Below are positions 10,696-35,357 of a stretch of 35,357 nt of DNA, piece by piece (within the stretch, counting starts at the first letter, position 1; each line of letters opens with the position of its first letter). The position numbers and the translations under genes were made by a program. Source of the stretch: Catajapyx aquilonaris (Eukaryota); the NCBI GenBank assembly GCA_000934665.2, contig JYFJ02000984.1, forward strand, positions 62,001 to 97,357, read 5' to 3'. The notes below the pieces were generated by a model. That model searched no databases and was not told the origin of the DNA. It worked only from the letters and a program-made list of their open reading frames with translations.

Positions 10696-10789
10696 AATTA
10701 ATGCCACAGTACGTCATCATTTTTGCACTGAACAGCAGCCGGCATAATCGACACCATACATTTGCAGTTAAATGTGTAGAGATAACATT

Positions 10790-11474: not shown

Positions 11475-11650
11475 CACAGTGAGTGCTAATCAAGTAATGT
11501 CGTTTGTATTGTTTGGATGGACTTTTTGACCCAAAATTAAATGGTAACATTTAGTACTTGTATATTTTGTGCACACTGTTGTTGAATATTTTAGCACACG
11601 TTTTCAGTAAATGTGGCGAAATAAATAGCTCTCCCTTGATGGGCTGTACC
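11475..11650. repeat. Scaffold module J; second copy ~31270-31440
   Basis: CAGTGAGTGCTA.TCAAGT, TTGTATTG.TTGGAT, GTTGAATATTTTA and GCTCTCC.TTGATGGGCTG are collinear. Confidence 0.8.
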
Positions 11651-12867: not shown

Positions 12868-12945
12868 TTAATTAATATTTATTTATTAATTTTACCCCAT
12901 GCTGGCCAACATGGCCCTTTAGGGGGACCTCCTCCCCATACAGAG
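12868..12945 (-). mobile_element. Probable non-LTR (L2-like) 3' tail
   Basis: Minus strand ends ...GGGCCATGTTGGCCAGCATGGGGTAAAATT-AATAAATAAAT: a GGCC..GGCC stem followed by a (TAAA)n tail, like insect LINE 3' ends. Confidence 0.4.
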
Positions 12946-13101
12946 AATGTTCACATTGTGCGGCAATTTGGTACATTTACAAAGCATAACATTATGACCA
13001 GGAAGCCAAATACTGAATCATTTACTGGTCGGCTGCGGGGAAAAAAAGAAAATCAAAAATAAATAAACACGGTCGGAGGGAGGGAAAAAAGATGAGCATA
13101 C

Positions 13102-13107
<6 letters not shown>

Positions 13108-13134
<27 letters not shown>
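13108..13134. repeat. Poly(A) tract, 27 nt
   Basis: Directly visible. Flanked by the inverted 9-mers GATGAGCAT / ATGCTCATC. Confidence 0.95.
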
Positions 13135-13619
13135 CATGCTCATCATTTACATATGCTCAGCTTACTTCATTTCGCATAGGTCTATGATCACTGTAAGATC
13201 GGCAAAAAACTGATATCGAAGGATTAAGTAAGTTGATTATTATGAAGGAAAAAAATCTTCCTCGTATGCGTTCCAGTCAATGCTCGCAGTTTCCTCGTCA
13301 AAAAGCATACATCTTCAGCCCATTTTCATGACTTGGTGTCTGTAGATTGGGGTAATCATGCTGCCTTATTGTAAGTACAGTAGTTGCTAATTCAGTGGTG
13401 CATCTATTAGGCCCAATTGGATGATCTCTCGACGACATAGCACGTTTAGGCGTGTCTTTTATCGTGAAGGTCTTTCAATACTTGCTTCGACCATTGTCTT
13501 GATTAACTGCTCGGCCTTACCTAGATAATTTTTAAAGTCACGAAACTAGTGCTTGGGGGCTGGGTACCAACTGCTGACGTGGAACATAATTACTACTTGT
13601 CATAACTACATTGACTCGC

Positions 13620-15245
13620 CGCAGTCACAAACGTCCAACTTGCTTCGTCGTATGGTGTCATTGAAACCTGTCCTTGGTTGTGTCGCAATTGAAGGGTATA
13701 TGATGATAGTGATATGAAATAAATATTTTTCTCCAATATTAATTTTTCCGTGTATTATGAAACAAGCCAGCGCCATTTGCACAATATACGCCACCGTCAT
13801 CAGCTTCTGATAGTCACTTCCGCTTGGAGCAGTGCCAAACACGCTACAGAAGGTCTCGTAGATGCTACGAGAATAGGTGCTTGCTGGCAGGCATCGCGTC
13901 AATTCTTTAATATTACAGATTGACCCAGCCAGTGAAGCGTCTTGTCACAGTCGACAATCTCGTTTTTCACAAGCCATAGTGCTTGATATTTAAGTTTTAT
14001 ATGCCACTCTGCCATTTTATGTGCCCACTCGGTAACAATGCCGGCAGCGTCGTGCACCAATGTTGGTGATGGTGAATATTTTACCACAAGTGTCAACTTA
14101 TTGCGAATGATTTTTTTTTACTGTAGGGAACGTAACTGATACCAGATACTTGCATGTCTATAATGCCCTCATATAATTGTGAAATTTTCAGCTCCTTCCG
14201 TCACATACATGTGTCAATGGCTGGGTCAACTCCTTGGCGTTACCTTCTTATAGCCATCAGGTATAGGCTTGGTTGTTTAACATCCTTTCCACTCAAATAA
14301 ACTCTGACAAGTAACACGTGGCCCAGGCAAATGCATACGGTGGGTGAGATGTGGGTAATTTACTGATATATTGTGGCCAATAAAATTAGTTTGAAAATGG
14401 GTTACAGTATTGCCTTCTTTTGAAGATGGGACCAGCTCTGTGGTCATCTCCCTGTGTAGTATCACGCGAGTGAAACACATCTGATCGTCGTCCTGGTTCA
14501 CACTAGTTTGCGCACTGTCGCCGATTATTAACTGAGCTTTTAAAATGAAGCATCTGACAAGTAGAGAGATTCTGAATGGCAAAATATTTTTTGTTTGGAC
14601 CCAGTTCATTTCGCATTGTTGCAGTACTGGGACACTCGAGTCTCACGTGAACCTCCCTGGTTCAGATGTCGGAAGGAACGTTTTTTCCGTTGTTGTGGTT
14701 TGTTTTGATGTAATCCCAGTGAGTGACGTGTAAATTGAAATATAAAATTTAACAATTTTAATACATTTAAGTTACATTTTGACGGATAGATCCCCATTCA
14801 TCACGTCTATTCGTATGGTTGTCTGTAATAATCGTTATTAATTACTTCATTTTGATCAACTTGGGCGGAACCAGTAATTCTAAGATGTTCCAGCTGAGTT
14901 GCCCGATACAATTCCCATTATTTAACAATAGATGACATTAATTTTGCATGGCGCAATGCCTGCTTACTATCATCCTTTATGGCGCATGTTGTAGTAGGTA
15001 ATGCAAGGTTTTGTCTTTTTCGAATCCCTTCCAGACGAAGAAGTGATATCAAGTCCTATTGAAATATCTCTCGACTTATAATGTGATGTATGTAGAAGAC
15101 AATGCATCCGGACAGCGGGTTTTGTTTTGGTAATGTGGTATGTCTGACTTGTCTGAAATGTGTTTTTAGCAATTATGCATATTTGGCCCAGCAGCACCAT
15201 AAGATGCATCATTAGAATCTTAATTTGTTAGGGTGCTACCCACTT
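13620..15245. repeat. Scaffold module C (~1.6 kb), uninterrupted copy
   Basis: Collinear with 22420-22590 plus 23470-25663 and partly with 27380-27470. Examples: CGTCTTGTCACAGTCGACAATCT, GTGCACCAATGTTGGTGAT, GGCCAATAAAATTAGTTTGAAAATGG, GCATCTGACAAGTAGA.AGATTCTGAATGGCAAAATAT, TTCCAGCTGAGTT, CTTCCAGACGA, AGGGT.CTACCCACTT. Confidence 0.92.
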
Positions 15246-16305
15246 AATTTCTGTTTAAAAATCTTAGGTAACAAGGTAAAAATAATAACTTGTGGGATAT
15301 TTCTATATATTCTTTCAGACCATTATGCTTAGCTCCAAATGTCGAAGTGCAGCAGTTAATAAGTGGCCCAAATCAGCGAATCATTTCTGGCTAGGTAATG
15401 CCATTTTGGCTTCATATTAATTTTGGGATACAAGCCTAAAATATGTTTCAAAAACTCTCAAGTACTGTACCTGAAGGTAGGCAATCATGGCATCTGAACA
15501 GAGTCGAGGGAGGCAGGTTCTCTTTTCCTACTGGTTCAAATTCACCGAACAATAATAGGAAAAGGCGCACGTGGCACCAAAATGCTGCTCAAGTCTGCTT
15601 GGTGCATCACACATGCCCATTTATATTTCTCGCTAATTTTGAGAAGGATGGTGACACCGATTTTCTGCACATCTTTTTCGGTGTTGCTTTCAACTGAAAC
15701 ACTATCTTCAGCGTCGTGAAAATGCCGGTATTTTCGGGAACATTTTCATCACAGTGAGTCCCGATATGAATTTAAAGTTTCAACGTTTAGGAGCGACAGA
15801 AAGAGTATGTGGGCTGGTGATGTCATTTGAATTAATTAATTGCACCTACCTGATTTACTCACGAGTTTTTGGCTATTTTCCCTTACTTCGTATTATACTT
15901 AAAATACATATATGAAAATTCAGAGAAAGCTTGTCAGCTGACTTGGTGACAAAGGAGTTATGCTGGAAGTGACAAGGGCTGTCTGTGTCTGTCATATTTC
16001 GCACTTGAAGACTGAGAGTCGTGGTTTTTCTTACAGTGTACTTTCTTACTAAATAGCGTAAATGTACACAAGTTCAAAGGATGTCACTAATGTGAAAATT
16101 TATATTATCCTTAAAAGTTACATCGTTATACGAGTATGCTCGTAGTTATATTGTAGACATTCTCTTTAACGAATCACATATCAGCACAGTCTCTTTATGG
16201 GGACATTTCCATTTTGTCGTCGTTGTTGGTTGTGTAGTCGTGTGTTATGAATGGGAAAGCCATGTTGTGAAGGTACTAACCTCTTTGTAACATTTGCGTC
16301 ATGCC

Positions 16306-17244
16306 TGTCACGAGGTCAGATTCAAGAGGCCCCAAAAGCAGAGAGTGACGTACTAAGGTGCACATTTAAAGAGAAAATTTATTATCAATATAAACAACTG
16401 TTCAGGAAAAGAAAGGACCAAGTCCGCATAAATTAAAGGTTCACAATAAATTGGGATGTGGAGAATGGACGGCTAGGAAGGTCAGATTAACAACCATAAC
16501 AATCCTGAACAAAATATCCAAATCATGTTTACAACCAGAGTCATAACCAACACACTTGGCACTCATGGAAATAACACTCCACACTCACTTTCACTTTCCA
16601 CGCCCGCTTCACGCCCCACTAGCACGGAGCAACAAGGAAGCGCAGGCCCCCAAAAAAAGGTATGCACTGGCGCAATTAAACCACACGCACCGTAACACAC
16701 ATACGTTCAATAGAAGATCCAGGTCTGGAATTCCTGAGTCGAGCTATCACTCCGGTGAGACGACAACTCCTAGTTGGCGTCCAAGAAGTCCAGAGTACAA
16801 CTTCACCAGTGTTGTAGAACACAGGCATATACCGCCTACTTCACCACTGTCGTTGAACACAGGCATCTACAGCCTACAGTGTCAAACAGTGCGACACGTC
16901 CCCAATAAAAAGGGGAAGGGAGGGAAGGCAAAGGACACGACCGTGTACAATTTTACCACGGCCTCCGAACCTTCAAACCACTGACAAGTAACGGGAACCC
17001 ACCCGTACCACAGTAACTCCCCAGAATTACGTACAAGTACCTTTCACTCGTACAACCCAAAAGGGGGGCAAAAATAGCAAGTCACCCAGCGTGTACAGAG
17101 CATACCAGCTCCGCTGAGGAGACGCCACATACTGACCACGCAGGGCCAGAAAAACTCTTCAAGAAAAAAAATCCTAGCGACTAAGCAATTCCATTTTACA
17201 AGCCGAGTCCGTGAGACAGGCCAGTCAAAAAGTCACACGTGACA
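16306..17244 (-). mobile_element. Solo LTR of an LTR retrotransposon (939 bp)
   Basis: Termini TGTCACG...CGTGACA (7-bp inverted, TG..CA), flanked by a perfect 5-bp TSD ATGCC (16301-16305 and 17245-17249). Orientation is tentative, from a minus-strand AATAAA ~75 nt before the left end. Confidence 0.88.
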
Positions 17245-17639
17245 ATGCCTGTGCCATAGAATGTGATGAAGGAAAACAACATTGTTTTAAATGCGTTTCT
17301 TTGGGCTAACTTGGTGCGGTACATGCTGAAAGCTTAGTGCTGTGACAGAGACTCCCAGGCAATAGCTGAAGTTTATTGTGCGTGGGATGTTCTCATTTTG
17401 TCCTATTCTTATAAGCCTAACATGAGGTTCACTTCACCCTTTAGGCTATGGGGACACAACATCTGGTGCCACTAGTGTCTCACATGCTGTGAGTCCTGTG
17501 ACTTGCACTATCCCAATATAATGCACTGCTCCTGTCTTGAAGGATATAACCACTGATGATGATAATGTGGTCAACAGCCTCGGTCGTATTTTTTCTTATG
17601 ATTGTATTCCTGTACTAATATGTATGAAGAGTTCTACAG

Positions 17640-17790
17640 TGTGTACTGACTTTTGTATCACTGGTGATAAATCTTATCTCAAGGTGAAATGCCACACACT
17701 TCTGAAGACGCCTCAGTAACTGCTTTACACACCTCTCCACTGCTTGAGTGTGACATGGGAAGTGGAAAACGAGTGGAAGAATAGGCGGGC
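17640..17790 (-). pseudogene. C-terminal fragment of a hAT-type (hATm-like) transposase
   Basis: FPCHTQAVERCVK, then after a frameshift VTEASSEVCGISP*D. Matches the remembered PCHTQAVERxVKxVTEASxxVCG..RD motif. Subfamily assignment is from memory. Confidence 0.7.
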
Positions 17791-17889
17791 CTTCCTCTGT
17801 AATTATGAATTTTTTGCCAGTTGATAAGGTCAACGTAATCCTGAGCGTTGAAGTTGATTACTGAATTATTGAACTTGTGTACAGATGAT

Positions 17890-18294
17890 TCAGGTGGCCT
17901 TCTTGATGGCCTTCAGGTGGCCTTCTTGAACTCGCAGAAAGCGTTCGGCCAGCCTTTGTGGCATGCTGGCGACCGTCTTCCCCATGATCCATGGGTAGTT
18001 AGCGGTGGATTCCCAGACCTCGCTGCAGTGATCCCGGAGCAGATGATCCCGCCGTTCATTTCGGTTGTCCCACTCCCTGACCGTCATACCCCACACGTTT
18101 TCGATGAGGTTGAGGTCAGAGGAGTAGGCAAGCCACTGCAGCCTCGATATCTTCGGGTGGTCATCCAGGAAGTCCCTGGTAATCCTCGCTGTGTGTGTCC
18201 CTGCATTGTCCTGCACGAATCTGATGCCCTGCTTTTCCGGGTACCTTGCCTCCAATTCCGGGAGAAGGTCGTCACCCAGTAGCTCATATGCCAA
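17890..18294 (-). pseudogene. Tc1-family transposase, C-terminal catalytic half
   Basis: FVQDNAGTHTARIT...QWLAYSSDLNLIENVW...VASMPQRL. I count 35 residues between the second D and the E. No N-terminus or terminal inverted repeat (TIR) adjoining. Confidence 0.93.
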
Positions 18295-18333
18295 GGGGTA
18301 GAGGTGAACACGACCGCGTCATGCCCCGGGATG

Positions 18334-18453
18334 ACCCCTCCAGGTGACCTCGATCCTGTTTGTATGGGCATGGGTGTCTGGATCTACGAAGTGGATACTG
18401 TGATTCGCCGTCAAATGCTCAAATCCCTCCCTTTCTAGTTGCGAATATGCCTG
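18334..18453 (-). pseudogene. Merlin / ISXO2-like (IS1595-type DDE) transposase fragment
   Basis: Manual translation QAYSQLEREGFEHLTANHSIHFVDPDTHAHTNRIEVTWRG fits AYxxLxxxGxxHxTVNHSxxFVDPxTGxHTxxIExxW. This frame is not in the ORF track. Confidence 0.88.
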
Positions 18454-18514
18454 TGAATATAATTATGTACAAAAATATGAAATTCCCTCAAAAATGCACC
18501 TACCGTATTTTTCC

Positions 18515-18610
18515 TAATGCGCCGCCTTAACCTTAGCGTGGTGGTGGGCCTTGAGTTCTCCAGCGACCCCATAGCTGCCTGCTGGCACAGTCATCCAGGC
18601 CAGATTGGCC
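18515..18610 (+). mobile_element. Possible RTE-clade LINE 5'-UTR remnant
   Basis: CCTTAGCGTGGTGGTGGGCCTTGAGTTCTCCAGCGACCCCATAGCT resembles the CCTTGyCGTGGTGrrGGGCTTG.GTG..CCA..GA..C..AGCT leader I recall for RTE elements. Confidence 0.35.
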
Positions 18611-19565
18611 ATTTTGGGGTTGGGGAATGACTGAGAGAGGTGCCGGTCTTTCCGCAATGCTATTCTACATTTACTGCACAACCTTAAACAGTACCTGCGG
18701 CTTGCCGACCGTTTGATTCGTTGTTTTGCTTCTGGGTTTGAAGTCGGAGGGACCCCAGAATTAATTCCTCAAGTTTGCCCAGAATATGTTATGGGGTGAT
18801 GTCATTTGATTAATTGCACCATAACATGTATACCTGATTTACTCACGAGTTTTTGGCTACTTTCCCTTACTTATACTTAAAATACAGAATGAAAATTCAG
18901 AGAAAACTTGTCAGCTGACTTGGTGAGACTGTTCCTTTTTCCCCACCACATCTTGTCGCTCTTTGTCTGCACTCGATAAGTTGTGACCGTCGTCAGGTGC
19001 TGTCATGGAGGCGTCCAGGACTCTCCTTGGGATCTTTTCTGGACGAGGTGCCCTCGTCAAAGTTATTATGAGCAATAGTCACTTGCAGTGTAAGTAGCAA
19101 ACAATGTAGTGCTGTTGACTAAGATGTGAGTGTCAATTTTGTCTTTGCCTCGTCTCTTCTGGATGTGTCTGAGGAAGCTGATATCAGGACTACCTGAAGC
19201 GCCTGCTCGATTCTTATTATATGCACGGCGATAATTCAATTTCTATTGTGTGGTGAATGACGGTGTTGCTGTGTTTTCTGTGGGAGAGGCTGCATACCAT
19301 CATGAAGTGCTTCGTCAGGTTGACTCGGAATTATCCAGTCGGACAACTACAGGTTTCTTTACGAACAGGCTTTCATATTTATAAACTATTTGCATGCATA
19401 ATAAAATCACTACGTGGGAGGCGGTGATGTCAGACCCTTTGGCGTGTACCTCTGACCCTGTATAATATTCAATATGGATGTGCATCTAGAGGTAATAATT
19501 TCTAGCGTTTTCTCCGGCCCTCTTTGGTTTAGATGTCAACTAACATTATTACTTATTTTATGATG

Positions 19566-19995
19566 TACGCGGGTGGTTTGATAAGTTTGGTAAAAAACGT
19601 AATAGTTAAATACCCTTTTTCGGCTAAAAACGATTGCTGCTTCGACTCCGGTGTGTAGTGGTGAATCCACGGTTCATCCATGGTCACGAATCGACGCGAC
19701 GCAAGAAATCCTGCGGATTGCGATTGAATATCACCAAACTACACTTCTTTGAAATGTCCTTGCGCATGCGTTTTTGGTCGACTGTCAACAGTCGCGGCAT
19801 CCATCGCGCACACAGCTTTTTTATGTGCAATTCTTCGTCCAGGATATTGTGCACTCGTTCAGTTGAGATGTTTACAGTGTCAGCAATCTCGCTTACTGTC
19901 ACTAGGCGGTCTTTCATAACGATATCATGGATTTTTTCAACGATATCCGTCGTGGTGACCTCAACTGGGCGACCGGAGCGCCCTTCATCTGTGCC
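19566..19995 (-). mobile_element. Internally deleted mariner: HTH2 to first catalytic Asp, plus one TIR
   Basis: DEGRSGRPVEV...IVMKDRLVTVSEIA...ISTERVHNILDEELHIKKLCARWMPRLLTVDQK, then (frameshift) RFVTMDEPWIHHYTPESKQQS. TA + CGCGGGTGGTTTGATAAGTT mariner-type TIR at 19566-19587. Confidence 0.93.
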
Positions 19996-20257
19996 ACCTG
20001 GATACTGTCCTTGCCGCCTCACATTAGGAGCTATGTTCGATAACTGCTGGTGATGAAATTACAGGCTGACCCGGCCAATTTGGCCCTGCAGCCCCTATGC
20101 TCTATGACTGCAAAAATTACTCTTATACTGTTACCCTTTATGAAAATGGATCTCAGCGCGGAATATTCAACTTGCAATGAGGAAAGCTAGGCAATGACAA
20201 TAACAATGCTAATTACACCCTTGAGTCTCCAAAACAATACTCATCGAGTGCCATTCA

Positions 20258-20457
20258 CCCTGGCCAGCAATGCAGCCTGCCATTTTCGTCCGACCGCCAG
20301 GTTTTTTCATCGGAAAAAACTACCGGTGGCTCACTGCAAGGGGCAGCGGGATGAAGGACGTTCTCATATGCGAATTGCAGTCGCATTGCCTTCTGCGCTT
20401 TTGTAAGGCGTTGTCGCCTTGCAGGGACTCGATCATGAACCCCCAGAACCCCGCAAC
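20258..20457 (-). pseudogene. Tc1-family transposase fragment (HTH2 end to first catalytic Asp)
   Basis: Manual translation LGVHDRVPARRQRLTKAQKAMRLQFAYENVLH...VVFSDEKTWRSDENGRLHCW fits RxPxxKxxLTxxxKxxRLxFA...VxFSDEK. This frame is not in the ORF track. Confidence 0.88.
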
Positions 20458-20846
20458 CTGAAACTCACATATTACCTTAGTTTGTAAGGGCACATGTTTA
20501 TTAGTCATGTCAGGTTAATACACGAACCCTGTCCCTCGGAACAATCACACCGTCGGTCGGTTACCTTTCTCACCCCATGCACATATGTTGCTGAAATATT
20601 TTAAAACGTTTATCGACACGAATAGGTCGAAATAAATTACTCCCCCATGGCAAGCTACGAAACTCATACAACGTGTGTATATCTTATGCAGATTATTATC
20701 ATATACAGTACTAGGATCCTTTGAAGAGGAGAATAAAGTTGTAGCTGATGTGTTGTTCCTAGTCTCTTCACGCTGGATCTGGAGTATGGTGTGACATCAC
20801 GGCCGAATAAAACATTCATTCTGGTAATCATCCATTCTGGTGTTTC

Positions 20847-21080
20847 CTAAAGTGAAAGAGATTTATAATCCGTCCAACTGAGGACAGGCCCTTCACAGGC
20901 GAGAATGTGAGCCAAATGATCCGGATTAAATAAGCGTTCATGGATATGGGTCATCAAAGGCGAAAGCAGAAAGGTAATTAGTTTGTTCACACCCGCTTTG
21001 GGGCTGGCATACCCTGTAACTATAGGGCGTATAGGAAAATTCCTAGGGGAATGTCCAGCCTTGTGGATTTTCATACTTTC
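20847..21080 (-). pseudogene. Penelope-like retroelement, start of the reverse transcriptase domain
   Basis: KIHK...FPIRPIVTGYASPKAGVNKLITFLLSPL matches the Penelope PKIHK..PLRPIVS...SP.......L.PL motif. Confidence 0.8.
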
Positions 21081-23053
21081 CCTGGATTCTTCACTCATTC
21101 GGAAGTTCTGAGACCCCATCAAGTCAAACTGTGCGCTGTATGTGTTCTTCTATCTTCGTGTTTTTGTGTGGCGAAACCTACGACTTGCACTTTGAGAGTT
21201 ACATCGCACTGAAATTATGGTCATTGTCAATTTTATATGAAAAGTACACCAATCTTTTGCAAATATGATAATAATTGGTTCGGCGCGACACTGACTTATC
21301 TGGTTCCTGGTTGTATACCTTTGACCCTCATAATATTATTGGACAATCGCAGGCCTTTTGGGTTTGGAGTAGAATATTGCTAGAAAATTTAGTATTCTTT
21401 TTCCTGACATATCACTCTCAACTGTCGTGTCCTTTTGACAAACTAAGTTTGCTTTTTTTTAAAAATATATATTTAAAAAACAATTTTCATAACATCTGGT
21501 GGAGTGTCGTCCATTGGCCGGAAATATTTCAAGCCAGCAGCACTGTCAGGGTCTGTCGAATTTTTACTAACTTACATGAAAATAGTGTATAGTATACGCC
21601 TTTCCCAAGTCATTGCCATTAGAAAATATACTTGCATGCATTCATCAATACTTATGACATAATAGTTTCTAAAACACACTTCAAAATGAACCTGATGCAT
21701 ACACAGAGAAGTTACCTTGCTGCAAACAAATAAGCCAACAGATCGGTCATTGTCATATGAGGAGGCACAGGTTTTTTCCTGCAAGTCTGTAATGAGGTTA
21801 TACATAACATTGTCCGGTAAGCATCATTTTGTGCGTAACGACCTGTTGACCTAAACCGTCGAGGTGTAAATTGCTTTCCAATGGTTTGCAGTGCAACTCA
21901 CACAAGATGGAACTAGTGTACCCTCATGCAATTGTGAAGCTTTCAACTTGACGTGTTCGTCAAGGTGTGTCATCATGGGGCCATGTATGTGAGGAGTGGA
22001 TGCATTTTATGATTACTCAAACTGTCATCTTCTTGCATCCAGATTGCTACGTTGCTACTTCAGGTCCTTCCTGCCCATCTTCTTCAGTTTTTCGCCAATT
22101 TGTGTCACTTGGTGCATCCTAATTGCTGAGGGCATGTACATCTTTTATTAGTGGACCTGCTACTAAATGATTCAACTTCAAGCAACTTTTGTCCTCTTAT
22201 TACGCCATTCTGATGTAAATTGCTTCTGCTGCTGCAACAATTACGGTAACGTGGCATGAGTATGGCCATTTCCGTTTAAATCCTTGGACCATGTCGTCAC
22301 AGTACCTACCAACGCGTTCCTTGTTGCTTGCTCTCAGCACAGCGAGGAAGTATGACTCACTTGGCGATGTGTAATTGAATAATGGTCTTGTCAGGTTAGG
22401 TTTCGACCAGACATGCCAACACTCCCAAACGTCCAGCTTGCTTCATCGCATGGTGTCATAGATCATAGATCGGTGGAATCCCTTGGTTGTATGAGCAAGT
22501 GAAGGGTCTGATATTATATTAGAATGTTTTTTTACCAATATAATTTTCCCCCCCAAATTAGTAACCAAACTAGCGCCAATTGCAGATTAAAGCAAACTTA
22601 ATGCGGTAACAGTTTACAGTCAACTCCAGGCACGATTACCTCAAATCCGTGTTGGTTAGAACGGGTAAGATGGATAATATTGACGTCTCATTGCCGGTCA
22701 CTATTAAATTCACAATCAGAGTGGGTTATTTGCCCTCCACCCCCAGCCCCAGCTGCTACAGTATAGCCACCTTGTGGGTCAGTCCATTGTGATCATGAAA
22801 GACTGCCGAGTCTTAACTTTCACAATCTCCTGAACTATACGGCCGTCAGGTGTTCCCTGTAAGTACAGAGACTAGTTATTAACTTTTATAGATCGCTCTG
22901 CTAATCTCAATATCTCATATGCAGATGACATTCCTTCTCCTTTAGAGAGGATATGTGATAAGAAGGATCCACTTGGCAGACGTGTTCTCTAGGCCTTTAG
23001 GAGTAATTTGCGAGTTGGCGCCACCTGATCGGCCCCTTAAGTCAGGTGTTGCC

Positions 23054-23202
23054 GAATACACTCGCCTCTGCGACATACACACGTCCCCGTATTTCACAAC
23101 CATCCTACGGTGGATTTGGATTAGCTTAATCCCTTCACTCCACAAAAATCTGACGATGGCCCGCCGTTCTTCTTTGGTGCACGTTTTAAGTGGTGCCACC
23201 AT
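23054..23202 (-). pseudogene. Mariner transposase N-terminal HTH fragment
   Basis: MVAPLKTCTKEERRAIVRFLWSEGIKLIQIHRRMVVKYGDVCMSQRRVY is a typical mariner first HTH. It is truncated before the conserved W. Confidence 0.9.
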
Positions 23203-24133
23203 CTTGGGATAGCTGTCGGTCGATTCCCATGCCATATAGTGGCACAAACTTTTACTACTTGATCTGCTATAGGTCTACCATTGTGTAGTGTGCAAGGTTT
23301 CAAGCGGCCAGGGACGATTTTTGGAATTTTCAGGACACTCGTCGTTTTCATTTGACTCGTCCTCGTATGTAATGACTGAGAATAATTTTGATGGTTGTTA
23401 TTGGCTAGCCCTTTGACCTTTTTCTGCTGGAAGGAATTTGTTATCGTCATAAGCATATGCGTCTTCCACAGTATAGTGGACGCTGCGATAATTCGTGTTT
23501 GCTGGTAGGCATCTTGTCAATAATCGATGTTTCATCATCATGCAGCACTGGCCGAATAAGCGAGCGAAACGTCTTGTCACAGTCGACAATCTTTCACACG
23601 CCATATTCGCTTAATTGATGAATTTACCATTATATGCCACTTTGCCATTCTATGTTTACACTCTGTTACAATACCGGCCGTGTCGTGCACCAATGTTGGT
23701 GATTATTTAATCACAAGTGTCAAAGTAACATGCGAAAGAAATTTTTCCCCGTGGTTGGGAACGTAACTGATACAAGATCTGTGCATGTCTATATTGCCCT
23801 CATGTAATATTGTGTCCTCTTTTTGTGCTGGGTCACTCCTGGACGTTACCTTCTTATAGCCAAGTAGGCTTGATTGTTTAACGTCCTTTCTACTCAAATA
23901 TACTGAAACAGACAAGTAACACGTAGCCCTGGCACATGCAATGTGATGGGTGAGGATAGATATATTGAAATGGCCAATAAAATTAGTTTGAAAATGGCTA
24001 CCGTCCTGCCAGTTTTGGAGACGGAAGCAAAGTTAAGGTCGTCGGGCTCTGCCGTGATATCTCCATATGCAGTCTCAAGCAAGTGAGACACATCCCGATC
24101 GTCACCGTGGTTCACACTACTGGTATGTGCACT

Positions 24134-24659
24134 TTAAAGGGGTGTTAAGGGCTGACCAGCCAATGCGGCTCTACAGCCTCTCGTACCCGGTTTATTAACC
24201 AAGATACAATATTACAAACAAGATACAATTTTACAAACAAGATGAATAACAATCAAGGTTTCCTTAGCCTCCAACTTCTTGGAAGTTAACGATGGCTGTG
24301 AACCGTGGACTAGGAGGAAGAGGGAACAAGGGACGATCCTGTCCTATATCAAAAGTGCCCCTGGCAACCTTGGCAAAGGTAGGCTCAGAATTTCCTTGAA
24401 CAGCATACTTCACCCTCTCATGAGTACGTGACGCCCGTTCCTCAGTGCGTAACAATTGCTCTTCAGCGTGTAAAGCCTGCTCCTCGGCACGTAATACCCG
24501 TTCCTCAGCGTGCAAAGCCCGCTCAATGGCCTCAAAGGCGACAGCCCGCTCACGCTCCGCCGACCTCTCCGCTTCCCGTTGCCTGCTGGTCACCACAGTC
24601 GCATCCTCTTTCCACATGCAATCACGATTTGTAATGGTTTTAGTTTGTGGCACCAGAAG
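24134..24659 (-). mobile_element. Insertion carrying a coiled-coil, non-LTR ORF1(gag)-like fragment
   Basis: Absent from module C copy 1. Flanked by ATGTGCACT / ATGTGTACT. Encodes heptads (ERALHAE ERVLRAE EQALHAE EQLLRTE) followed by PTFAKVAR, like the [S/T][Y/F]AxV motif of LINE ORF1. Confidence 0.55.
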
Positions 24660-26119
24660 ATGTGTACTGTCGCCGAATATATTGCTGGGCATTTTAAATG
24701 AACTGAGCGTATCGCATCTGACAAGTAGACAGATTCTGAATGGCAAAATATATCATTTGTTTATGGTCCAGTCCATCTTCGCATGGTTGAGGCAGTGGGA
24801 CACTCGTATCTCACCTGAACCTGCTTGGTTCAGCTGGCAGAGGGAATTCTCATCCACGTTTACCTTTGTTGTGGTCTGTTTTGGTGTATTCCCTGCCGGT
24901 GACTGACAATTGCCTGTAGAGTTACATTTTGATGAATAGATCACCAGTCATATGGGAAATGGGCCTTTTCCTGATAATGTGCCAAAATTTTGTTGATGAT
25001 TCCCGTGACAAACTAGGTACAGGGAGGCGCTGTTTCTCTGCCTCCAATCGGTTTGAATGACTGGATTTTGATAGATACGTCGCGTCGCTCTGAAAGATGG
25101 CCACGGTAGTTATTACTTCACCTCCAAATATGCACCAGCTGGAAAGCGATAATATTAAAAAAAAGCATTATAACACATCCCCGAGACAGAACGGCTAGTA
25201 TAAGTGTTACCAGTGCCTCTTGGAGTCTATCAAACTCATCACGTCTATTTGTCTGTAATAATCGCTATTAATTTCTGCATTAATTTTTGATCGACCTGGA
25301 CGGATTCCCAGTAGGCATAATTCCAAGATCTTCCAGCTGAGTTTCCCAATACCAGTTCCCATCTTTAACAATGTATGACGTCTGCATAGGAGAAGACCTG
25401 TGTACTATGTTGTAGTGAAGTAAATGCTTTTAAACCTTTTTATTGTTCGAATCACTTCCAGACGAGAAAGTTAGTGATTTCTGGTCCTACAGAAATGTCT
25501 GTCGGATTATGATATGAGGTATTTGCTCTGGGACACATTGAGGGTTCCTATTTGGTCGTGGGGTTATTTCGCGGAGCCTTTTGGAGTTATACGTATGTTG
25601 TATACAGAAGCATCTCATGATTTGCATCATCAGAATATCTATTTTTAAGGGTACTACCCACTTTTAAAAACAAAAAAGCTATTACTGGTGCCAACAAAGC
25701 ATATGTAATAAATCGCACATGTTTTACTCATGTGTTTTGGCCACGTTCCCTTACTATTACTTACAAAATGAAAATTTAGAGACAGCTGTACTTATCAGTG
25801 GTCTTCTGAATGTGATTCAGGGCTCCCGGGAATTGTTCCATGATATACATACGTGATTATCTCCTCCATTGTGACTGGCTTCTCCCCATTTACAGCCCTG
25901 GCGCTCATGTACTTGTCACAAGAGCTGTCTGTGTCTTCAATGTGGTGCTTCAATTGCCGGGTAGTGAATGAAGCGCCTTGTATGATGTTCCGTCACCCTT
26001 ATTTCGAAGCCATCATCATTACTATCCTGTTGAAGAATGCAGCTCCTGTCCATATGGTTTTATTAGTAGAGTGTTTATCTTTTTCTCTAATGTTCTTGTG
26101 GAGACACTTGGAGGAGTTG

Positions 26120-26200
26120 AGGATGGCCATACTGCCCTGCTGAGCAGAAACGCTTGACACCTGAATATTTGATCCTGCTTTCCGGACACACAGCCCGATT
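26120..26200. repeat. Scaffold module K; second copy ~30458-30540
   Basis: GGATGGCC.TACTGCCCTGCTGAGCA.AAAC..TTGA.ACCTGAA..TATTT.ATCCTGC...GGACACAC shared. Confidence 0.85.
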
Positions 26201-27269
26201 ATAAATGTTTTGTCACTTTTCGAGGTGTCACATACCCTCAATTCAATTCTGGATGAGGTGTCCTAGCCAAAGTTATTGCGAGCAATAGTCCCAAGTGGTC
26301 TTCATTTATCTCTCTTCTGTTTGAGGAAGGGGATATCAGGCCCCGCTGATGTACTTTAGTTTACGAAGAAGTCGTTATTTGAATATATTGATAGACACAT
26401 TACTCTCTTGAAGAGCGTCGTGGTTTTTCTTACGTTGCACTTGCAGGGTAGTTGGTGAAACACCTTGTAGACTTGCATGATATTCCAGAATCTTGAACTC
26501 GAAGACATCCTCAATGCTATCATCAGGCTTCGGTGCACGATCTTTCTGCATTCTTTTCTATTCCTCCGGTTTTCGGATCTTTCGTGGTACCGTATATCGT
26601 GGGGTGAGAACAACAGGGTTCCATCTGACAATTTCACCAAAAATGAGTTATTGTTGGTACAACATATAGTTCCATATGCAATGATCTATATTCTCCAGTG
26701 ATTTTATCCCTATATCTCTTAAACTGACGGTGGCAAATCAGGGCGCAACTTATTGTTAGTTCCATCTGCACCATACAGTGAGAACAACAAGGTCCTAAAT
26801 GCAGAAGCATGTGATTAATTGGTGCAGGTTTCACTGTGATCAGAAGGTAACATATGAACAAAGAGAGGCCATCTTCAGAACATTTTGTGGGTTAGATCAA
26901 AATGGCCCCCACAAAAAGGCACACAGCTCACACACATGATAACCTGATAAATGAAGGTCGTGTTGTCCATACAGACCCATTTCATCAGCATTATGATAGT
27001 TGGCAGCAATTGAAATGGATTTTCCGGGTATTGTGCACGAATGTTGTTGGATATTGTCACGCAAGTCTCGAAGTACAATACAATACAATACATCACGGCC
27101 TTGGGCAAAATTAGTCGCCATTCTAGGGTTCGCTGTACAAATCGGACAAATGTGTCTGTCTAGAATGCACTCAATGTAGTTGTGAAATTTTCAGCTAGCG
27201 TACATCACAAGGCTCTGGCCTGTCGTGAAACACAGACATAGACACACATACCTCTCTTTCGTACAGGCC

Positions 27270-27370
27270 TGGAAGGGCTACCGCCCGGGGAAGCCTTGCC
27301 TACATTGTCTCACCTCATTCGCCTGCCTCCGCATCCGGGTCAGCTCTGGCGACCAGCCAGTACCACTTGG
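27270..27370 (-). pseudogene. Possible non-LTR ORF2 linker fragment
   Basis: GWSPELTRMRRQANEVRQ resembles the WWxxELxxLR...R motif between endonuclease and RT in R1/LOA-type LINEs. Short match. Confidence 0.3.
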
Positions 27371-27991
27371 GTCCTTGCCTCTGGGCCATTTTATGTTTCC
27401 ACTCTGTGTTACCATACCGCCCTTGTCTTGCACCAATGTTGGTGAATATTTTACCAATATAATATTCACCAACATTGGTGCATACAGTACCACAGGTCTT
27501 GTGTAAAATCATTGGTAAAATAATGGAGATCGTCGTGAGAGTCAGTGTCTTGACATTTAGACCTTATTTACCGAATCAGGGCCTTTGTTACGTTTTCTTT
27601 CTCTTCCTTGTCGGTGAATTTTCTGCCATTATACTTAGCTTCAAATGCCTAATAAGTGGCCCAAATAAGGTAGTGAAGTATTGGCTTCAGGTTAATGTTG
27701 GTATACAAAAATATCCTCCTGCATCAGTATTGGAAGCGATGAATTATGGATCCCGCTTCGGCTTTGATCCATGAATCTTCTCCTGAAACCCGGCGGCCTT
27801 TTCCTGCTCCAAATATGTCCTTGTCCTTTCTGCCTCTGCGTCTTATGTGCCTCTGTCGTGTTCCGTCATAGCTTTGCAGTAATGGTTGCGATCTCACTAC
27901 ACTGCCTCGAATATGAAGGAATCAAGGGAACTGCAAGTCCTCCCATCACGTGGAAAGTTCTGTAAGCGCGAGTGAATGCTATACTGTATAA

Positions 27992-28183
27992 AGGCCGGTA
28001 TCCACGTACTAGATTCTCGCATACGAGGAGCCGCGAGGAGCCAACTGCGCATGCCCAGATACGAGGAAAGGGGGAAAAAGTTGAAAATTTTCGACTTTTT
28101 CCCCCTTTCCTCGTGTCTGGGCATGCGCAGTTGGCTCCTCGCGGCTCCTCGTATGCGAGAATCTCGTACGTGGATACCGGCCT
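27992..28183. mobile_element. Palindromic PIF/Harbinger-type MITE (192 bp)
   Basis: AGGCCGGTATCCACGTAC...GTACGTGGATACCGGCCT. Two 96-bp arms meet at GAAAA|TTTTC with no loop and 3 mismatches. TAA TSD at 27989-27991 and 28184-28186. Confidence 0.9.
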
Positions 28184-28350
28184 TAAGGCTTCACAGCTTT
28201 CTTGATAGTTCGGGGCTTGAAGATGGGAGATAAAATAGTTCCGTCTAAGGTGGACTCAGTTGCAATGCAGCTCATTTATGAGACACCGTCACTTATTATT
28301 AGATGTCATTGCGACAATAAAGATGTTGCAAAGCGTGTATTGAATAGGTA

Positions 28351-30389
28351 CTATTGACCGCAAAAGTAATGTCGCGACTGTTTATGTGCTTTTGTGTTTA
28401 TGTGTTGGTAATCCTGGGCGCTGCCAGGTTACGGACATGTTGATTTGGCGATGTTCCGGAATCGACAACACTCTGCTCACCGGTCACGGCCGCGGTCCCT
28501 TGGCCGCACAGTCCCGCAAGTGCATGGCCGCACGGTCTGGGTCGCTGTTTGAGAGCGCCGCTACTTATTCGTGCAACTTATTTCTACGAGTATAGTTTGG
28601 GTAATTCCATGTGAGATCATACAACTATGTTCACCCGACATTTTTGTTTTAGAAAATCAAAATTTGGCACTTAGGATCGTATTTTGTCAAGGTCACAGGA
28701 ACATATTTTTCAAACCAGATAACCACTGTAGGTCACGAGAAATGAGCGAGGTAAAAAATGGGAACTTTTCCATTCTGATGTTTACAATAACCCGATAATA
28801 ATTTATCTAATAATTATTATGCGTCCTACATACATGCAAAATGGGGCTTAATATTCTACAATGTAACGCTGAACCCGCAGATAACCTCCAACAAATTATA
28901 CGATTAAAATTACGTTTCATTTTGGCAGGTCATATCCCTTCAGTGGTGCAAGTTTCATATTTGCCCTCGTATTAGGGTCCGAGATGTAAAATACCGTATA
29001 AATAAGGCGGCCGGGTGCGCCTGGGTCATTCGATGACAAGGCGTCCAAGTTGGTGGCTCGGCCATCTCAGAATGTATTGTTGTAACCCCCATATATTATA
29101 GTACGTAAGTTATATGAACGGGCGTGAGATGGACATTTTGGAGGCAACGCAACGGTTTTAACCTAGAGCGTAAAATGGCGATACTAAAAAATTCCCATTG
29201 TTGTGCAAAAAGGACACATTTCAGGTGGTCCAATGAAATTGTTAGCCGCATGCTAAGAGTATGAAATTAATGTGGTGAGTACATGGTCATCTACTCATTA
29301 CCCCTGGAGAAGGAAAACATCACCAGCCTCTATTCTATCTTGGAAATAATAAATCCTGACATGTCCGTTTTCCATTATTTGGTCTTTTTTTTCCCTCTTA
29401 TGTGACACTGGGAAATTTTAAATTTACACGTGTACTGACCAAGATGACCAAATGATGGGAAAACGTACATGTCAGGACAACAATACATTCTGAGATGGCC
29501 GAGCCACCAACTTGCCCTCCTTGTCATAGAATGACCCAGACGCTCTAGGCCACCTTATTTATTTTATATCTCGGACCCTATTACGAACACAACAATGGAA
29601 ATGCATACCACTGAAAGGTTATGGGTAGCAGATTACTCACAAAAATGTTCGCAAAATTCGATTCGGTGCGGGTCGTCACGTCAAGGGTCACGCAACTTCG
29701 TAATATTGCGGAAAAGGGCGAAAGAGGCGCATCCGACCTCCTTATTTGCTGTATTTTACATCTCGGACCCTAATACGGTGGCAAAATTAAACTTGCACCC
29801 CTGAAGGGATATGACCTGCCAAAATGACACGTAATTTTAATCGTAGAATTTGTTGGACGTTATCTGCGAGTTCGGCGTTACCTTGTAGAATATTAAGCCC
29901 CATTTTGCATGTATGTAGGACGCATAATGATTATTAGATAAATTATCGGGTTATTGTAAACATCAGAATGGAAAAATTCCCATTTTGACCTCGTCATTTC
30001 TCGTGACCTGTAGCGGTTATCTGGTTTGAAAAATATGGCCCTGTGACCTTGACAAAATACGAACCTGAATGCCAAATTTCGATTTTCTATTTTTAAAAAT
30101 GTCGGGTGAACATTGTTGTATGATCTCACGTGGAATTACCCAAACTATACTCGTAGAAATAAGTTGCCCGAATAAATAGCGGCGCTCTCAAACAGCGACC
30201 CAGACCGTGCGGCCATGCACTTGCGGGACTGTGCGGCCAAGGGACCGCGGCCGTGACCGGTGAGCAGAGTGTTGTGGATTCCGGAACATCGCCAAATAAA
30301 CATGTCCGTAACCCGGCAGCGCCCAGGATTACCAACACATAAACACAAAAGCACATAAACAGTCGCGACATTACTTTTGCGGTCAATAG
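28351..30389. mobile_element. Non-autonomous foldback-like DNA transposon, 2039 bp, ~670-bp TIRs, TA TSD (Tc1/mariner-type ends)
   Basis: TA-CTATTGACCGCAAAAGTAATG...CATTACTTTTGCGGTCAATAG-TA. Arms ~28351-29020 and ~29725-30389 are reverse complements (roughly 90% by eye). Mirror ORFs 28386+ and 30145-. No transposase inside. Confidence 0.93.
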
Positions 30390-31464
30390 TACATGCTCCG
30401 TATTAATTACTGCTGAAGAAGTGATCCTGACCATTAAAACCAAGGATTAATACCATTTGGATGGCCTTACTGCCCTGCTGAGCATAAACATTTGAGACCT
30501 GAAATATTTAATCCTGCAGTCAGGACACACGGCCAGATTTGAAATTTCTCATTTTGTTCTTGGCTAGGATTGTCGTTTATCTGCAAAAACAACTTTCTTT
30601 CAATAATTGTCGCCGGCGTGTCACGGACCTTCTGAAAAATTCTTCCAGTGCCTGTTTACTCTCCATATATAATGCTGTGCACCAACGGTGTGGAATATTG
30701 TCAGGCGAGTGTCGATATAAACCGGACGGATTCCGTCACTGTCTCGTGGTAAGCTGGGAGGAGGACTTCATGTGACTACTTCTGCTGTCTTCATCATATG
30801 ATTGAATACAACTGACAAGTGAGCCAAGGTGTGTGTATCATTAGGTTGCCCTCATACAATTGCGATACGTTCAGCTTCCTTCATCGCATGTTGTCTGCGC
30901 TGATATTTCTCGGTAGAAGGATTATCTAGGTTGCTTTGGCAAGTAAATACGAAGGATGTGATGAAGATGTATTGAAATGTGCTGTAGCCAATATTATAAC
31001 TATATTTGCAAATAATTACCATACCAAAGAATTCCGTAATATTCTAAAACTACTGGTATACAGTTGCTGTCACAGATATTTTTATCATTGATTTTTATTC
31101 AATAAGGGTATGCGTGCCATCTGAAGTACTTAAGAAGGGGCATGACAAGTTGTTTCGCATAGTTGGGGCAATGGGCAATGATCTGTTATTATTACAAGTG
31201 CATTGAAAGGCTACCGCAGATGTTGGATTGAACTGCAGATGATTTTACATCTTACTGGCACGACTTCGACGCAGTGAGTGCTAGTCAAGTCATATCTCAG
31301 TTGTATTGATTGGATTGAATTGTTGGCGTTTTTCGCTACCTGTATAATTACACCTCGGGCGACATTGTGGTTGAATATTTTAATCCAAGTCTCGAATCAA
31401 ATTGCGCTAAATGAATTGCTCTCCTTTGATGGGCTGCATGCCTCACTCAGTTTCTTCTTGTGCG

Positions 31465-31715
31465 TGCCCTCACCGGTCTTCATCTCCTCTCTCCTCATAT
31501 TCCCCACCTCCTTCCGGGCATTTTTTTTATAAAAAAAAATCGTAAGGGTTTATTGCTGATGGTGGCTTTTGTTGGTCGAGATGGCGTCGAATTACGTATT
31601 TTCGATTAATTCCACTCCTCTTCTTTCTTCCTGTTCGTCATCGTATCCGTCTGCTCCAGCACATTACTGTGCTGAAGAGCAAGAGCCAGAAGCAGATGCT
31701 GTTTCTTTAACTTAA
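31465..31715 (-). pseudogene. Myb/SANT-like DNA-binding domain fragment, of the kind found in PIF/Harbinger accessory proteins
   Basis: Manual translation KQHLLLALALQHSNVLEQTDTMTNRKKEEEWN* and, after disruption, KKNARKEVGNMRREEMKTGEG. Fits LL.L......iE...td..t...K...W and K..a.K....rre..KTGGG. Confidence 0.7.
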
Positions 31716-34515
31716 GTTTCAGGCCTCACGTTGTGCTGCCCATCTCGATAACCAGGTCGTATTCTAGGAATATAAGCCCGCAAAGCAAGCCAACCAACAT
31801 ATCGCGGAAAAGCTCGTCCAAAATTACAACACCAACTGTGGTGTTTGTGACTACCTGTAACAATGTGTTATTAGTCTGTGTGATGCGACGTTTTTCGTTC
31901 CTTTAGCTTGAAACTATCCCGTCATTTTTGCCACGTATAAGTACTCCCCATGCTGTGCACCGACGCGAGTTTCGATAACAATATTTCGCCATATAAATTC
32001 TTCTCCCGTTGCAAGCAATATTACTGAGTTATTAACCTATACCTGGCGTCTTTCGAAGCGAAGTTCGAAGTTGATGTTAGTTTCTGCTGTCATCTCCAGG
32101 TACATTTGCCTCAAATCCATGCTGCCATGGAAGACTAACTTGGTTTATATAAGTAGATCTCCTTAATACCTGGACGAGATTCGTTGTCCGTTGAACAGAA
32201 AAATTTCATATCACCCGGTCTCCCAGGTCCAGCTGTTGAGTCAGCTTCTCTTTCCAGAAGGTTTTACGGCTGTTGAGGTTATGTATACCCGTTTCCTGAA
32301 TGTGGTCTGCACCCAGCACCTCCATCTCCTCTGGTGCAGGCAACAATTTTTTCAGCTGCCCAATGTGAACCATTCACAATAATTATTGTTAATTAATCTA
32401 CATTCCTCTCACGAGTATAGTGGCATTGTTGAGTACCTCATAGTGCCTCAGATAGATTGTGAACCAGTTCCCTGGGAAATCACACCTCCGCCCTCCATTA
32501 TCATAATCTGTTCGAGCAGCTTAATTTCTCAATATATAAACCTGTCATTTATTAATGTGCTGTCGCTATAATTCCTGTGAGAATCACGTACAAGAAGGTG
32601 TTGGGGTCTCTCTTTCGTTGTCGTCTTATCTGTAATGTAACCTTGCATTTGGATATACACGTCCACGTCCTACTGAAATATGACCTCGGTATTAATTGTG
32701 TCATTTCTCCTACGAAATATGCACGCACTGCTTGTGTCACATCACATAAAACGCAATTTTGGCTTCAGGTTAATGGTGGAATACAATGCCGAAAATAGTT
32801 ACAAATGAGTACCTATAAAGATAGGCAATCATAGCATCTGAATGGAGTAGTTCCTTGCAAGCACTCAGCAACCTCTTGAGGCAGTCTTAATTCCATACAC
32901 ATTTGCAAAAGTGCGGTCTTCCTTTGCTATTCCTTAACGATGCGTTCGTCATCTCAATATGTCAAGTGTTGCAGTCACACTGTGCCTCTGGTGAACTATC
33001 ATTGCAGCACATGCAGGTCCTTAACTAATTGAAGCTTTCTAACAAACGCTCCTTGGCACGCCCGCGCCCTCCTCTCCTCCGCTCTCCAGTGACTCGTCAT
33101 CATTAGCTGGCTGGCTCAGAAGTGAGCCCAGTGTGGTGAAGATACTCAAAATTTATCGGCAGATATACTTTGCATTTTACATTTAAATGGGTCGTTCAGA
33201 AATGATTAGAACTACAATTTTTTTCTGCACGCTAACCATTTAATGGGACTGACTCTTTCATTGCGTCGGACAGAGCGAAGTAGCTAGTCGCAGTCCATGG
33301 CCAGTTGTTGCTGGACGGTAGAGACCTGACTCTCCTCAACAGCTTCTAGAGTCATCACCCCAATTTCTGCCACAGTATTCATGGCAAACATTTCGAATGC
33401 ACTCATCAATTGTTGATCTCCTTTCTTCCTTCTGCTTATTCTTGATGTGGTTGTCAAAGCTACAATAAAGACATTGCAATGATTTATGCAATCAAACAGA
33501 TATAGTTCGAGAGAATACAGTATATTATTAAAATACATTCTGAGCAATGAACTCCCACTTAATCACAATACTCGTAATCAAATTTCAGAAGAATGCCGAA
33601 GGAAGACGTCGTCGATAAACTTGACAATTATTTCTTCGCCTACTCGTTTAGCATTAATAATTAATTGCTCTGGAATATTATTCGACGGATAACTAGTAAA
33701 AGGGCATGATTGCAGGCATAGCCGTATGTAGGAAGATGAATCAGTGATGATAAGACTGGCAGTGTCGCTCTTTCCTGTAACAGTGTGAGTCCACTTGAAA
33801 AGATGCAAGTGAAAGTGTTCAGAATCTTCTTTTTGTTTCATAATTTCGGGCAGTTGATGGCAGCAGAAATGTGATGGCCTCATTCTATTTCTACTAGAGC
33901 TGTTAATGCACAGGCATGTACAGTCATTATACACAGGTGATTATGTATTACGTATATTACATGCTTTCTGGTGGCATGATAATCCTAACAGAGTAACACG
34001 GGACATGTAATTATTGCTTCAACCTGAAGGGATAAAGAAGCTAGTGCTTGTAGTAATATAATATTATTGCTATCGCTGACCTTTAGCAACCATTTGAATA
34101 CGTTGGTGCCTTTTTTTCAATTTCTTGCTCGTATCTCTCCCACCCCTAAAATAAGACTGGGAAATCGTAGATCTTGAGTTCAGTGTTCGGAGACAAATGT
34201 TGCGATTAATTTTCTATTGACACTAATTTAATTCGTTGCAGGCAGAATACTTGTGATTGGCAACTTTTGCCTTTTGTAATGTGGCATGATCTGCGAAATA
34301 AATATTTCTCTCCCATGATGTGTCTTGTGTCTAGTTTTCCTTCATTGTGATGATTTCGGCTTGCTTTCGTCACGTGGTGTCATTATACAGAGTCGTCTGC
34401 TTGCTGACCAGATATTGAATATTCCTAATATGATTGTTGGATTATTTTGTTTTGATGCATTAATCTTAAACTTACAGTAAATTGTCAACGTTCTCTTTCA
34501 CATTGAGAGCTTTCC

Positions 34516-35357
34516 TTGTTTGTTTGTTTGTTTTGTGCTTTATTTAGTCTGTCGGCCTGCAGCTAATGCCGCTTGGCCGACCCTCCTCCCTCCTCACATG
34601 ATTACATTTACATTCATAGACATTCTACATGATTCCGTCACTCGATTCATTCATATGATTACATTGACATTTATCGACATTCTACATTTACATTTTTTTA
34701 CATAATTCCATTTTCTCTCACTCCCTCCCCCTGTCTCTCCAAAATTGCATCCCTCCTCTTTTTCACCACACCATACAAATACTTACACAGCGCACCCCTT
34801 TTTCTTACATTCTTTACAAAGCTATACACTTCCTCACCCTCCATCTCCTCCACCGCCGGTATCCATTTCCCCCTCTCCTCCTTCATTACCCTACAATCCC
34901 TCACTATATGCCCCATATTCTCCTCCCCCTCCCCACACAATAAACAGTTCCTCTCCGTTTCTGACAGCCACGACCAACTAGCCCTGCACAGTGTCCCACA
35001 TCTTAGTTTCGCCAACACCTTCAGAAATTTTATGTTCTCTCTGTCCAGATACTGGTCTTCTTCTCTCTCTATCTTTACAGATCTGTAGTCGGGCCAGTTG
35101 GTCGTGTTGGCAATTCTCTCCTCCCTCTCCTTGATCATCCTCTCCCTCAGTTCCTTCCCCCACGAGTCCCATCGTTCTTCCCAAGTTTGTCTTTGCCACT
35201 CCTCATCATGCTCCACCCCCCATTCTTGTTCCTTCTTCCTCACGTCTTCCCACCAGCCACTTTTACCACCTCCCTCCCTTTCCTTCTTCATCTCATCCCA
35301 TATCCTTCGCAACAGTCTGTCTTCCCCTAACCTTTCCATCTTCATGATCCACCTAAC
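34516..35357 (-). mobile_element. Non-LTR retrotransposon 3' end: ORF2 C-terminus (stop at 34698), 3' UTR and (AAAC)n tail; continues past the window
   Basis: Intact frame with LAKLRCG and the CCHC knuckle CLLCGEGEENMGHIVRDC. Stem-loop GTCGGCC..GGCCGAC, then AATAAA and (AAAC)n on the minus strand. Confidence 0.9.

Follow-up and report, generated by a model that had tools for sequence, protein, structure and literature searches.

A stretch of 35,357 bases from Catajapyx aquilonaris (contig JYFJ02000984.1, positions 62,001 to 97,357 of the forward strand; hereafter the window, numbered from its first base) holds decayed transposon fragments and short repeats that lie almost all in one orientation. 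This orientation is analyzed here, together with the tentative reading that the window belongs to a unistrand cluster of PIWI-interacting RNAs (piRNAs) transcribed from the plus strand. The window contains no N, its G+C content lies at 0.38-0.47, and its observed/expected CpG ratio across the window is 0.76, unlike that of mammals. Long open reading frames (ORFs) are absent, the longest stop-free frame being one of 219 amino acids (aa) on the minus strand that leaves the right end of the window. A single inverted-repeat element of 2 kb was kept apart in the counts of orientation:

28348-30392: inverted-repeat element with arms at 28348-29083 and 29477-30392 and a loop of ~393 nucleotides (nt)

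Orientation was scored by comparing the window with itself, without annotation, on the expectation that random orientation leaves about as many direct as inverted copies in each repeat family. At the DNA level (word size 7, E<=1e-3, overlapping rows removed) 44 rows were obtained, 42 direct and two inverted. Five direct rows belonging to a 21-bp tandem array (558-848) and one lying inside the 2-kb inverted-repeat element were set aside; one inverted row joins the element's own arms, and the other joins 9113-9183 to one arm of this palindromic element. Between separate places there remain 36 direct matches versus one inverted, spanning 4.0-34.3 kb, with copy identities of 64-88% and pair offsets of 0.3-28.6 kb; long direct repeats paired at high identity were not found in this comparison. 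The translated comparison gave 32 merged pairs, 26 direct and six inverted, of which all six inverted and one direct fall within the 2-kb element, leaving 25 direct versus none inverted elsewhere. Ten shuffles within 200-bp blocks yielded no match in any case, and ten random flips of 1-kb blocks yielded direct/inverted counts from 18/29 to 37/13, so that the method does see both orientations. Clustering resolved 18 families at 52 places (34 comparisons), or 21 places (20 comparisons) when places within 300 bp were merged, and neither clustering contained an orientation conflict outside the 2-kb element. After recurring neighbours and a colinear chain of matches were collapsed, about 17-22 independent comparisons remain by hand count, all of them direct, with p around 1e-5 to 1e-6, and chance is not a credible cause of the common orientation. 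Since these independent comparisons are all direct, the bias belongs to the entire window, beyond 16.3-35.4 kb. In fact, the strand bias is genuine and extends over about 4-34 kb; an earlier reading made from the letters without database searches (the sequence-only reading) had placed it in 16306-35357, and it proved both stronger than claimed there and wider in extent.

The copies that carry this count are distributed along the window as follows, with families denoted by letters:

4699-5066: first copy of family a-b, direct to 25717-25797 and 26400-26514
15802-15949: second copy of family a, direct to 18781-18926 (80%) and 25706-25787
18781-18926: third copy of family a, direct at both DNA and translated level
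25706-26514: fourth copy of family a-b, direct, broken up by other pieces
5267-5702: first copy of family c-d, direct to 15397-15504, 32747-32848 and 34117-34284
32747-34284: third copy of family c-d, direct, with an insertion of ~1.2 kb
6409-7050: first copy of family f-g, direct to 11574-11638, 21220-21648, 31363-31424 and 32051-32209
21220-21648: copy of family g, direct at both DNA and translated level
31264-32209: copy of family f-g, direct
10790-11330: first copy of family k-l, uninterrupted, direct to 18942-19220 and 20742-20883
18942-20883: second copy of family k-l, apparently split by ~1.5 kb of nested sequence (coordinates from the DNA self-comparison)
13622-15245: first copy of family n-o, ~1.6 kb, colinear and direct to 22420-25663 at 65-74% identity
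22420-25663: second copy of family n-o, expanded by apparent insertions at 22589-23471 and 24133-24661 (nesting read from gaps in the colinear chain)
27157-27456: partial copy of family o, direct to 14002-14205 and 23635-23713
30867-30997: partial copy of family n, direct to 22429-22544
10262-11432: three local copies of the short family j, all direct, with a fourth copy at 21775-21897

Families a-b, c-d, f-g, k-l and n-o each probably represent a single longer element, because their neighbouring matches recur together. The copies at 6409-7050 and 21220-21648, for example, share 73% identity over 448 columns. Younger pieces appear to be nested in older ones: the ~1.5 kb splitting the second k-l copy contains a mariner fragment and a Tc1 N-terminal piece, while in the second n-o copy the insertion at 22589-23471 (880 bp) contains another mariner fragment and that at 24133-24661 is a region of 21-bp repeats. 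The later insertions share the orientation of the rest, so that the nesting speaks for a bias that has continued over time rather than for one historical accident. Alignment of the ends of family n revealed no tail that would give its sense strand. Three copies of family o (14002-14086, 23635-23713 and 27376-27456) have in common an invariant core of 17 bases that is nearly palindromic, the third copy overlapping a 54-bp palindrome at 27429-27482; two metagenome scans with a conserved core of family o returned no match.

The strand of coding remnants was assessed by Pfam scans run alike on both strands. These covered the 150 longest stop-free ORFs per strand (at least 49-50 aa) in the entire window, every ORF between 33 and 49 aa within 16-35.4 kb (93 minus-strand and 86 plus-strand ORFs), and frames bridged over single stops with X, namely 102 segments in 16.2-35.4 kb and 61 of 66 segments in the left part, where five segments within 1-965 (the first 471 bp and the tandem array) were excluded. 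Frames of 5000 aa from the six-frame translation, with X at stops, were scanned as well and gave DDE_3 as their sole match. The following frames came under study:

17893-18318, minus strand: Tc1-type transposase fragment, from the second D to the E region plus the C-terminus (Pfam DDE_3)
18322-18462, minus strand: Merlin/IS1595-type transposase fragment of ~47 aa (DDE_Tnp_IS1595 as sole Pfam match, E 0.023, below cutoff)
19631-19992, minus strand: mariner transposase fragment #1 (homologue search and tblastn)
20258-20464, minus strand: Tc1-type N-terminal piece, from the end of the helix-turn-helix (HTH) domain to the first catalytic D region (HTH_Tnp_Tc3_2)
22921-23175, minus strand: mariner transposase fragment #2, residues ~3-136 (tblastn)
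34701-35357, minus strand: 219-aa open frame leaving the window end, probable C-terminal tail of ORF2 of a long interspersed nuclear element (LINE) (zf-RVT)
24267-24752, open on both strands: frame previously called LINE ORF1-like, without family match

Ten coding fragments, all on the minus strand, had been named in the sequence-only reading; six of them are supported, every one on the minus strand, and the other four were not confirmed. Two are identified firmly, namely the Tc1 DDE piece and mariner #1, while the Merlin piece, the Tc1 N-terminal piece, mariner #2 and the LINE tail are each backed by a below-cutoff Pfam match to exactly the expected family, which was the sole family reported for the fragment. 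The Tc1 DDE piece matches DDE_3 at E 1.5e-10 (41.5 bits against a cutoff of 28.6; 9.6e-11 with bridged frames), and none of 305 candidates among longer proteins was a homologue. Mariner #1 corresponds to residues ~57-173 of a 349-aa transposase by tblastn. In its homologue search 19 of 110 candidates reached E<=1e-3, the best at 2.6e-37 with 72% identity; the matches bear PF01359 and PF17906, the best relatives with names are insect proteins, and among solved structures SETMAR matched at E 0.25. Mariner #2 was detected by tblastn with the proteins homologous to mariner #1 (22921-23175, E 0.003 and 0.027) and by phmmer at E 1.4e-4, a value obtained within that small mariner library; its sole Pfam match is HTH_48 (22966-23190, E 0.052), and no solved structure matched. 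The Tc1 N-terminal piece matches HTH_Tnp_Tc3_2 at E 0.0032 and carries a Tc1-type motif at 20303-20317. The order of the two Tc1 pieces on the minus strand fits one copy split by ~1.9 kb of other pieces, so 20258-20464 and 17893-18318 may belong to the same copy, in which case the independent coding insertions number five rather than six. The frame at 34701-35357 matches zf-RVT at E 0.0025 (7.8e-4 with a trimmed query); its atlas neighbours are eukaryotic hypothetical-protein clusters, mostly of arthropods or molluscs, with zf-RVT as the nearest named cluster, and searches gave homologues in none of 617 candidates among longer proteins and no PDB match. Together with the insect relatives of mariner #1, these neighbours hint weakly at an invertebrate as the host. 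The Merlin-type and Tc1-type DDE pieces adjoin within 17893-18462 in one reading frame with a single stop between them, as two unrelated transposase remnants arranged head to tail.

The four fragments that fell away include the frame at 24267-24752. This frame has no family match and overlaps a degenerate tandem repeat (21-bp period at 24458-24524 by Tandem Repeats Finder), and its opposite strand carries an open frame of 160 aa. On these grounds its LINE ORF1-like label is not supported, and it is probably a translated degenerate minisatellite. The proposed hAT, Penelope and Harbinger-Myb pieces were not located, no such family being matched at E<=0.1 in any ORF of at least 33 aa on either strand of 16-35.4 kb. 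A reverse-transcriptase remnant guessed at 33581-33940 during the present analysis was dropped, as a full-library search returned two matches, both to bacterial surface-repeat proteins. With six of six fragments on one strand the two-sided p is 0.03, or 0.06 for five of five if the two Tc1 pieces are one element; the earlier chance of about 0.002 was calculated from all ten fragments, including the four unconfirmed ones. The remnants on the minus strand represent four or more unrelated families, and the Pfam scans yielded no transposon family on the plus strand, nor any on either strand within 1-16.2 kb.

Base composition points in the same direction. The plus strand contains 11,112 T versus 9,312 A; the AT skew is below -0.03 in 89 of 116 windows of 600 bp and above +0.03 in 10, with a window mean of -0.084, and it has the same sign, T over A on the plus strand, in all six coding fragments. 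Such a skew fits a window composed in large part of transposon sequence that reads in sense on the minus strand. The 2-kb inverted-repeat element has a skew near zero, as its palindromic structure entails. One segment departs from the rest:

16201-17400: A+C-rich stretch with reversed A/T skew (AT skew +0.19 to +0.31), without Pfam match or second copy in the window

Inside this stretch a 38-bp repeat is present in 2.1 copies (16800-16877).

As a single reading of the window, a unistrand piRNA cluster transcribed from the plus strand fits best; it is put forward tentatively and at somewhat less than even chances. A long plus-strand unit, most likely a piRNA cluster, is favoured because near-total orientation combined with nesting is the published hallmark of unistrand clusters. 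In this structural respect the sequence-only reading was borne out, as unrelated transposon remnants lie in one orientation and the self-comparisons agree, nested insertions included. The model proposed is that the window would form part of a long plus-strand transcription unit, probably active in cells of the germline or gonad, a unit in which transposon pieces, with the minus strand as their sense strand, would be kept almost only when antisense to the transcript. Cleavage of one long plus-strand precursor would then produce antisense piRNAs against Tc1, mariner, Merlin and LINE elements and against several unclassified families of repeats, and a new insertion would persist only if its orientation yields antisense guides. 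Transcription, its direction and the processing into piRNAs are, all three, what we infer. The oriented domain leaves the window at both ends, so that neither a boundary nor a promoter is visible.

Dual-strand piRNA clusters, such as 42AB of Drosophila, hold fragments in both orientations. They resemble the window as graveyards of transposon fragments, but one orientation dominates here, whereas their strand bias is described as reduced in passages of PMC10643416. The closer likeness is to flamenco and flamenco-like clusters, in which dense, nested and decayed fragments run almost all one way over tens of kilobases. In Drosophila flamenco-like clusters the majority of fragments are reported, in the same passages of PMC10643416, to lie opposite to cluster transcription, and one-strand Gypsy content alone is stated, in parts of PMC11400887, to predict such clusters at true- and false-positive rates of ~0.8-0.9 and ~0.01-0.02, respectively. 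Enrichment of Gypsy-family elements or endogenous retroviruses that carry the bias is the Drosophila definition of a flamenco-like cluster, as far as these portions of PMC10643416 and PMC11400887 go. It is possible, though doubtful, that the window extends the flamenco-style one-strand cluster beyond the Gypsy and Drosophila pattern, with DNA transposons, LINE tails and short repeats archived near-totally antisense in an invertebrate host. If the locus is a piRNA cluster, its unusual feature would be an orientation rule that is followed by DNA transposons and short repeats. Confirmation by small RNAs would make it a unistrand piRNA cluster predicted from sequence, in which the rule holds for all transposon classes and not for retrovirus-like elements alone. 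If true, this is relevant to the question whether single-promoter clusters generally, across animals, retain insertions in antisense only. Furthermore, the count of direct versus inverted self-matches with block-flip controls is portable and, as it needs no repeat library, could be used to screen unannotated genomes.

Several observations weigh against a piRNA cluster. The bias in Drosophila flamenco-like clusters is driven by Gypsy elements only, according to the passages of PMC10643416, whereas here it is carried by DNA transposons, a LINE tail and unclassified repeats; no Gypsy-type or long terminal repeat (LTR) domain appeared in any Pfam scan, and no reverse transcriptase, integrase, gag or envelope family on either strand in any of them. 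Flamenco-like clusters are 227-1085 kb long, and 35 kb is in view here. Curated thresholds are passed by just two of the six coding identifications. The 1.2-kb stretch at 16201-17400 skews opposite to the remainder of the window and may be an insertion in the opposite orientation, for which it is the best candidate. The canonical poly(A) signal, AATAAA, shows no depletion on the plus strand, where it occurs 29 times versus 14-22 expected under Markov orders 0-3, an excess of ~1.3-2x. As copies of 64-88% identity are old, much of the archive would target long-dead families. The number of independent events may be smaller than the matches suggest, since the chain joining 7.6-15.9 kb to 15.7-25.8 kb may be one old tandem duplication. 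Lastly, the proposed transcription and its direction are drawn from orientation and skew alone.

The strongest alternative is that the window belongs to a host transcript of the plus strand, be it a very long intron, an untranslated region or a non-coding RNA, and that sense insertions were purged from it for disturbing splicing or termination, with no role for piRNAs. It ranks close behind the piRNA cluster as a possible, if rather unlikely, explanation. Antisense bias of this kind is moderate in introns. In the window it is near total (25-36 versus 0-1), DNA transposons and unclassified short repeats included, so that it goes beyond the LINE and LTR classes. AATAAA is undepleted on the presumed sense strand, 29 being seen versus 14-22 expected, and this counts against a host transcript, as selection against termination should deplete the signal. 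The T-over-A skew of the plus strand fits a sense strand, and the lack of any recognisable exon in the window, on both strands, is what the interior of a large intron would show: the Pfam scans gave no protein-family match suggesting a host exon on either strand of the 35 kb, and exons may lie outside the window. Flanking exons, as known for host introns, are thus absent from the 35-kb view. The alternative draws on a precedent, antisense transposon bias inside genes being well known for mammalian LINEs and LTR elements, where elements lie mostly opposite one transcription direction, as set out in sections of PMC3088655; DNA transposons were excluded from the analysis described in those sections. 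If the window is intronic instead, the near-total bias of its DNA transposons would itself be unusual.

A second alternative dispenses with selection on orientation: a small set of elements would have been multiplied by a few old tandem or segmental duplications of local extent, which preserve orientation, and their order would then have been scrambled by decay and deletions. This is held to be improbable, and its support comes from a colinear chain of eight matches at offsets of 8.1-10.4 kb, joining two adjacent blocks, with these paired starts:

7651 to 15728; 10790 to 18942; 11179 to 20742; 13622 to 22420
13853 to 23471; 14509 to 24661; 14798 to 25236; 15833 to 25706

Two further matches have a common offset of ~5167 bp. 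Most pairs are nevertheless off-diagonal (offsets 0.3-28.6 kb), identities are spread over 64-88%, and only about a quarter of the supposedly duplicated block can be aligned. Pieces that would postdate the duplication (families g, j, e, f, m and h) are still direct to relatives elsewhere, ~17 independent direct comparisons remain by hand count with the chain collapsed, and duplication leaves unexplained the strand shared by unrelated coding fragments. A last alternative, either minus-strand transcription with the elements in sense or orientation-specific insertion or retention unrelated to transcription, is very unlikely, for although the minus strand has AATAAA at or just under the expected number (27 versus 25-33, Markov orders 0-3) while the plus strand has it in excess, no process is known to us that would give Tc1, mariner, Merlin, LINE and short repeats one orientation, and the window has no telomere-type repeats and so is not an oriented telomeric array.

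Other scans of the window returned little that bears on the array. A tRNA scan found no gene, so that no tRNA-derived heads of short interspersed nuclear elements were seen, and each of ten Rfam matches scored far under the gathering score and fell at a palindrome. A run of A27 on the plus strand (13108-13134), preceded by A-rich sequence, occupies the loop of a short palindrome and could not be read as a retroposon tail.

Predicted hairpins form a further component of the window. The 2-kb inverted-repeat element, whose outer 298 nt are 98% complementary and which is for this reason the youngest-looking feature of the window, has diverged relatives at 4014-4215 and 9113-9392, and would form long double-stranded RNA if transcribed. 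At 27980-28195 a near-perfect hairpin with a stem of ~100 bp is predicted (minimum free energy -201.8 kcal/mol, z -29 against 200 shuffles). Its Rfam matches were microRNA-like only and far under threshold, and it may be a foldback element, a miniature inverted-repeat transposable element (MITE) or a source of hairpin RNA. These two features resemble hairpin-RNA loci, which give rise to endogenous small interfering RNAs (siRNAs), and foldback elements; here, in contrast, the predicted hairpins are local features inside an oriented array. In a piRNA cluster, such embedded long hairpins could feed the siRNA pathway too. At the left end of the window, the 21-bp tandem array at 585-843 comprises 12.3 copies with 95% matches and is open in several frames, yielding spurious Pfam matches of coiled-coil type.

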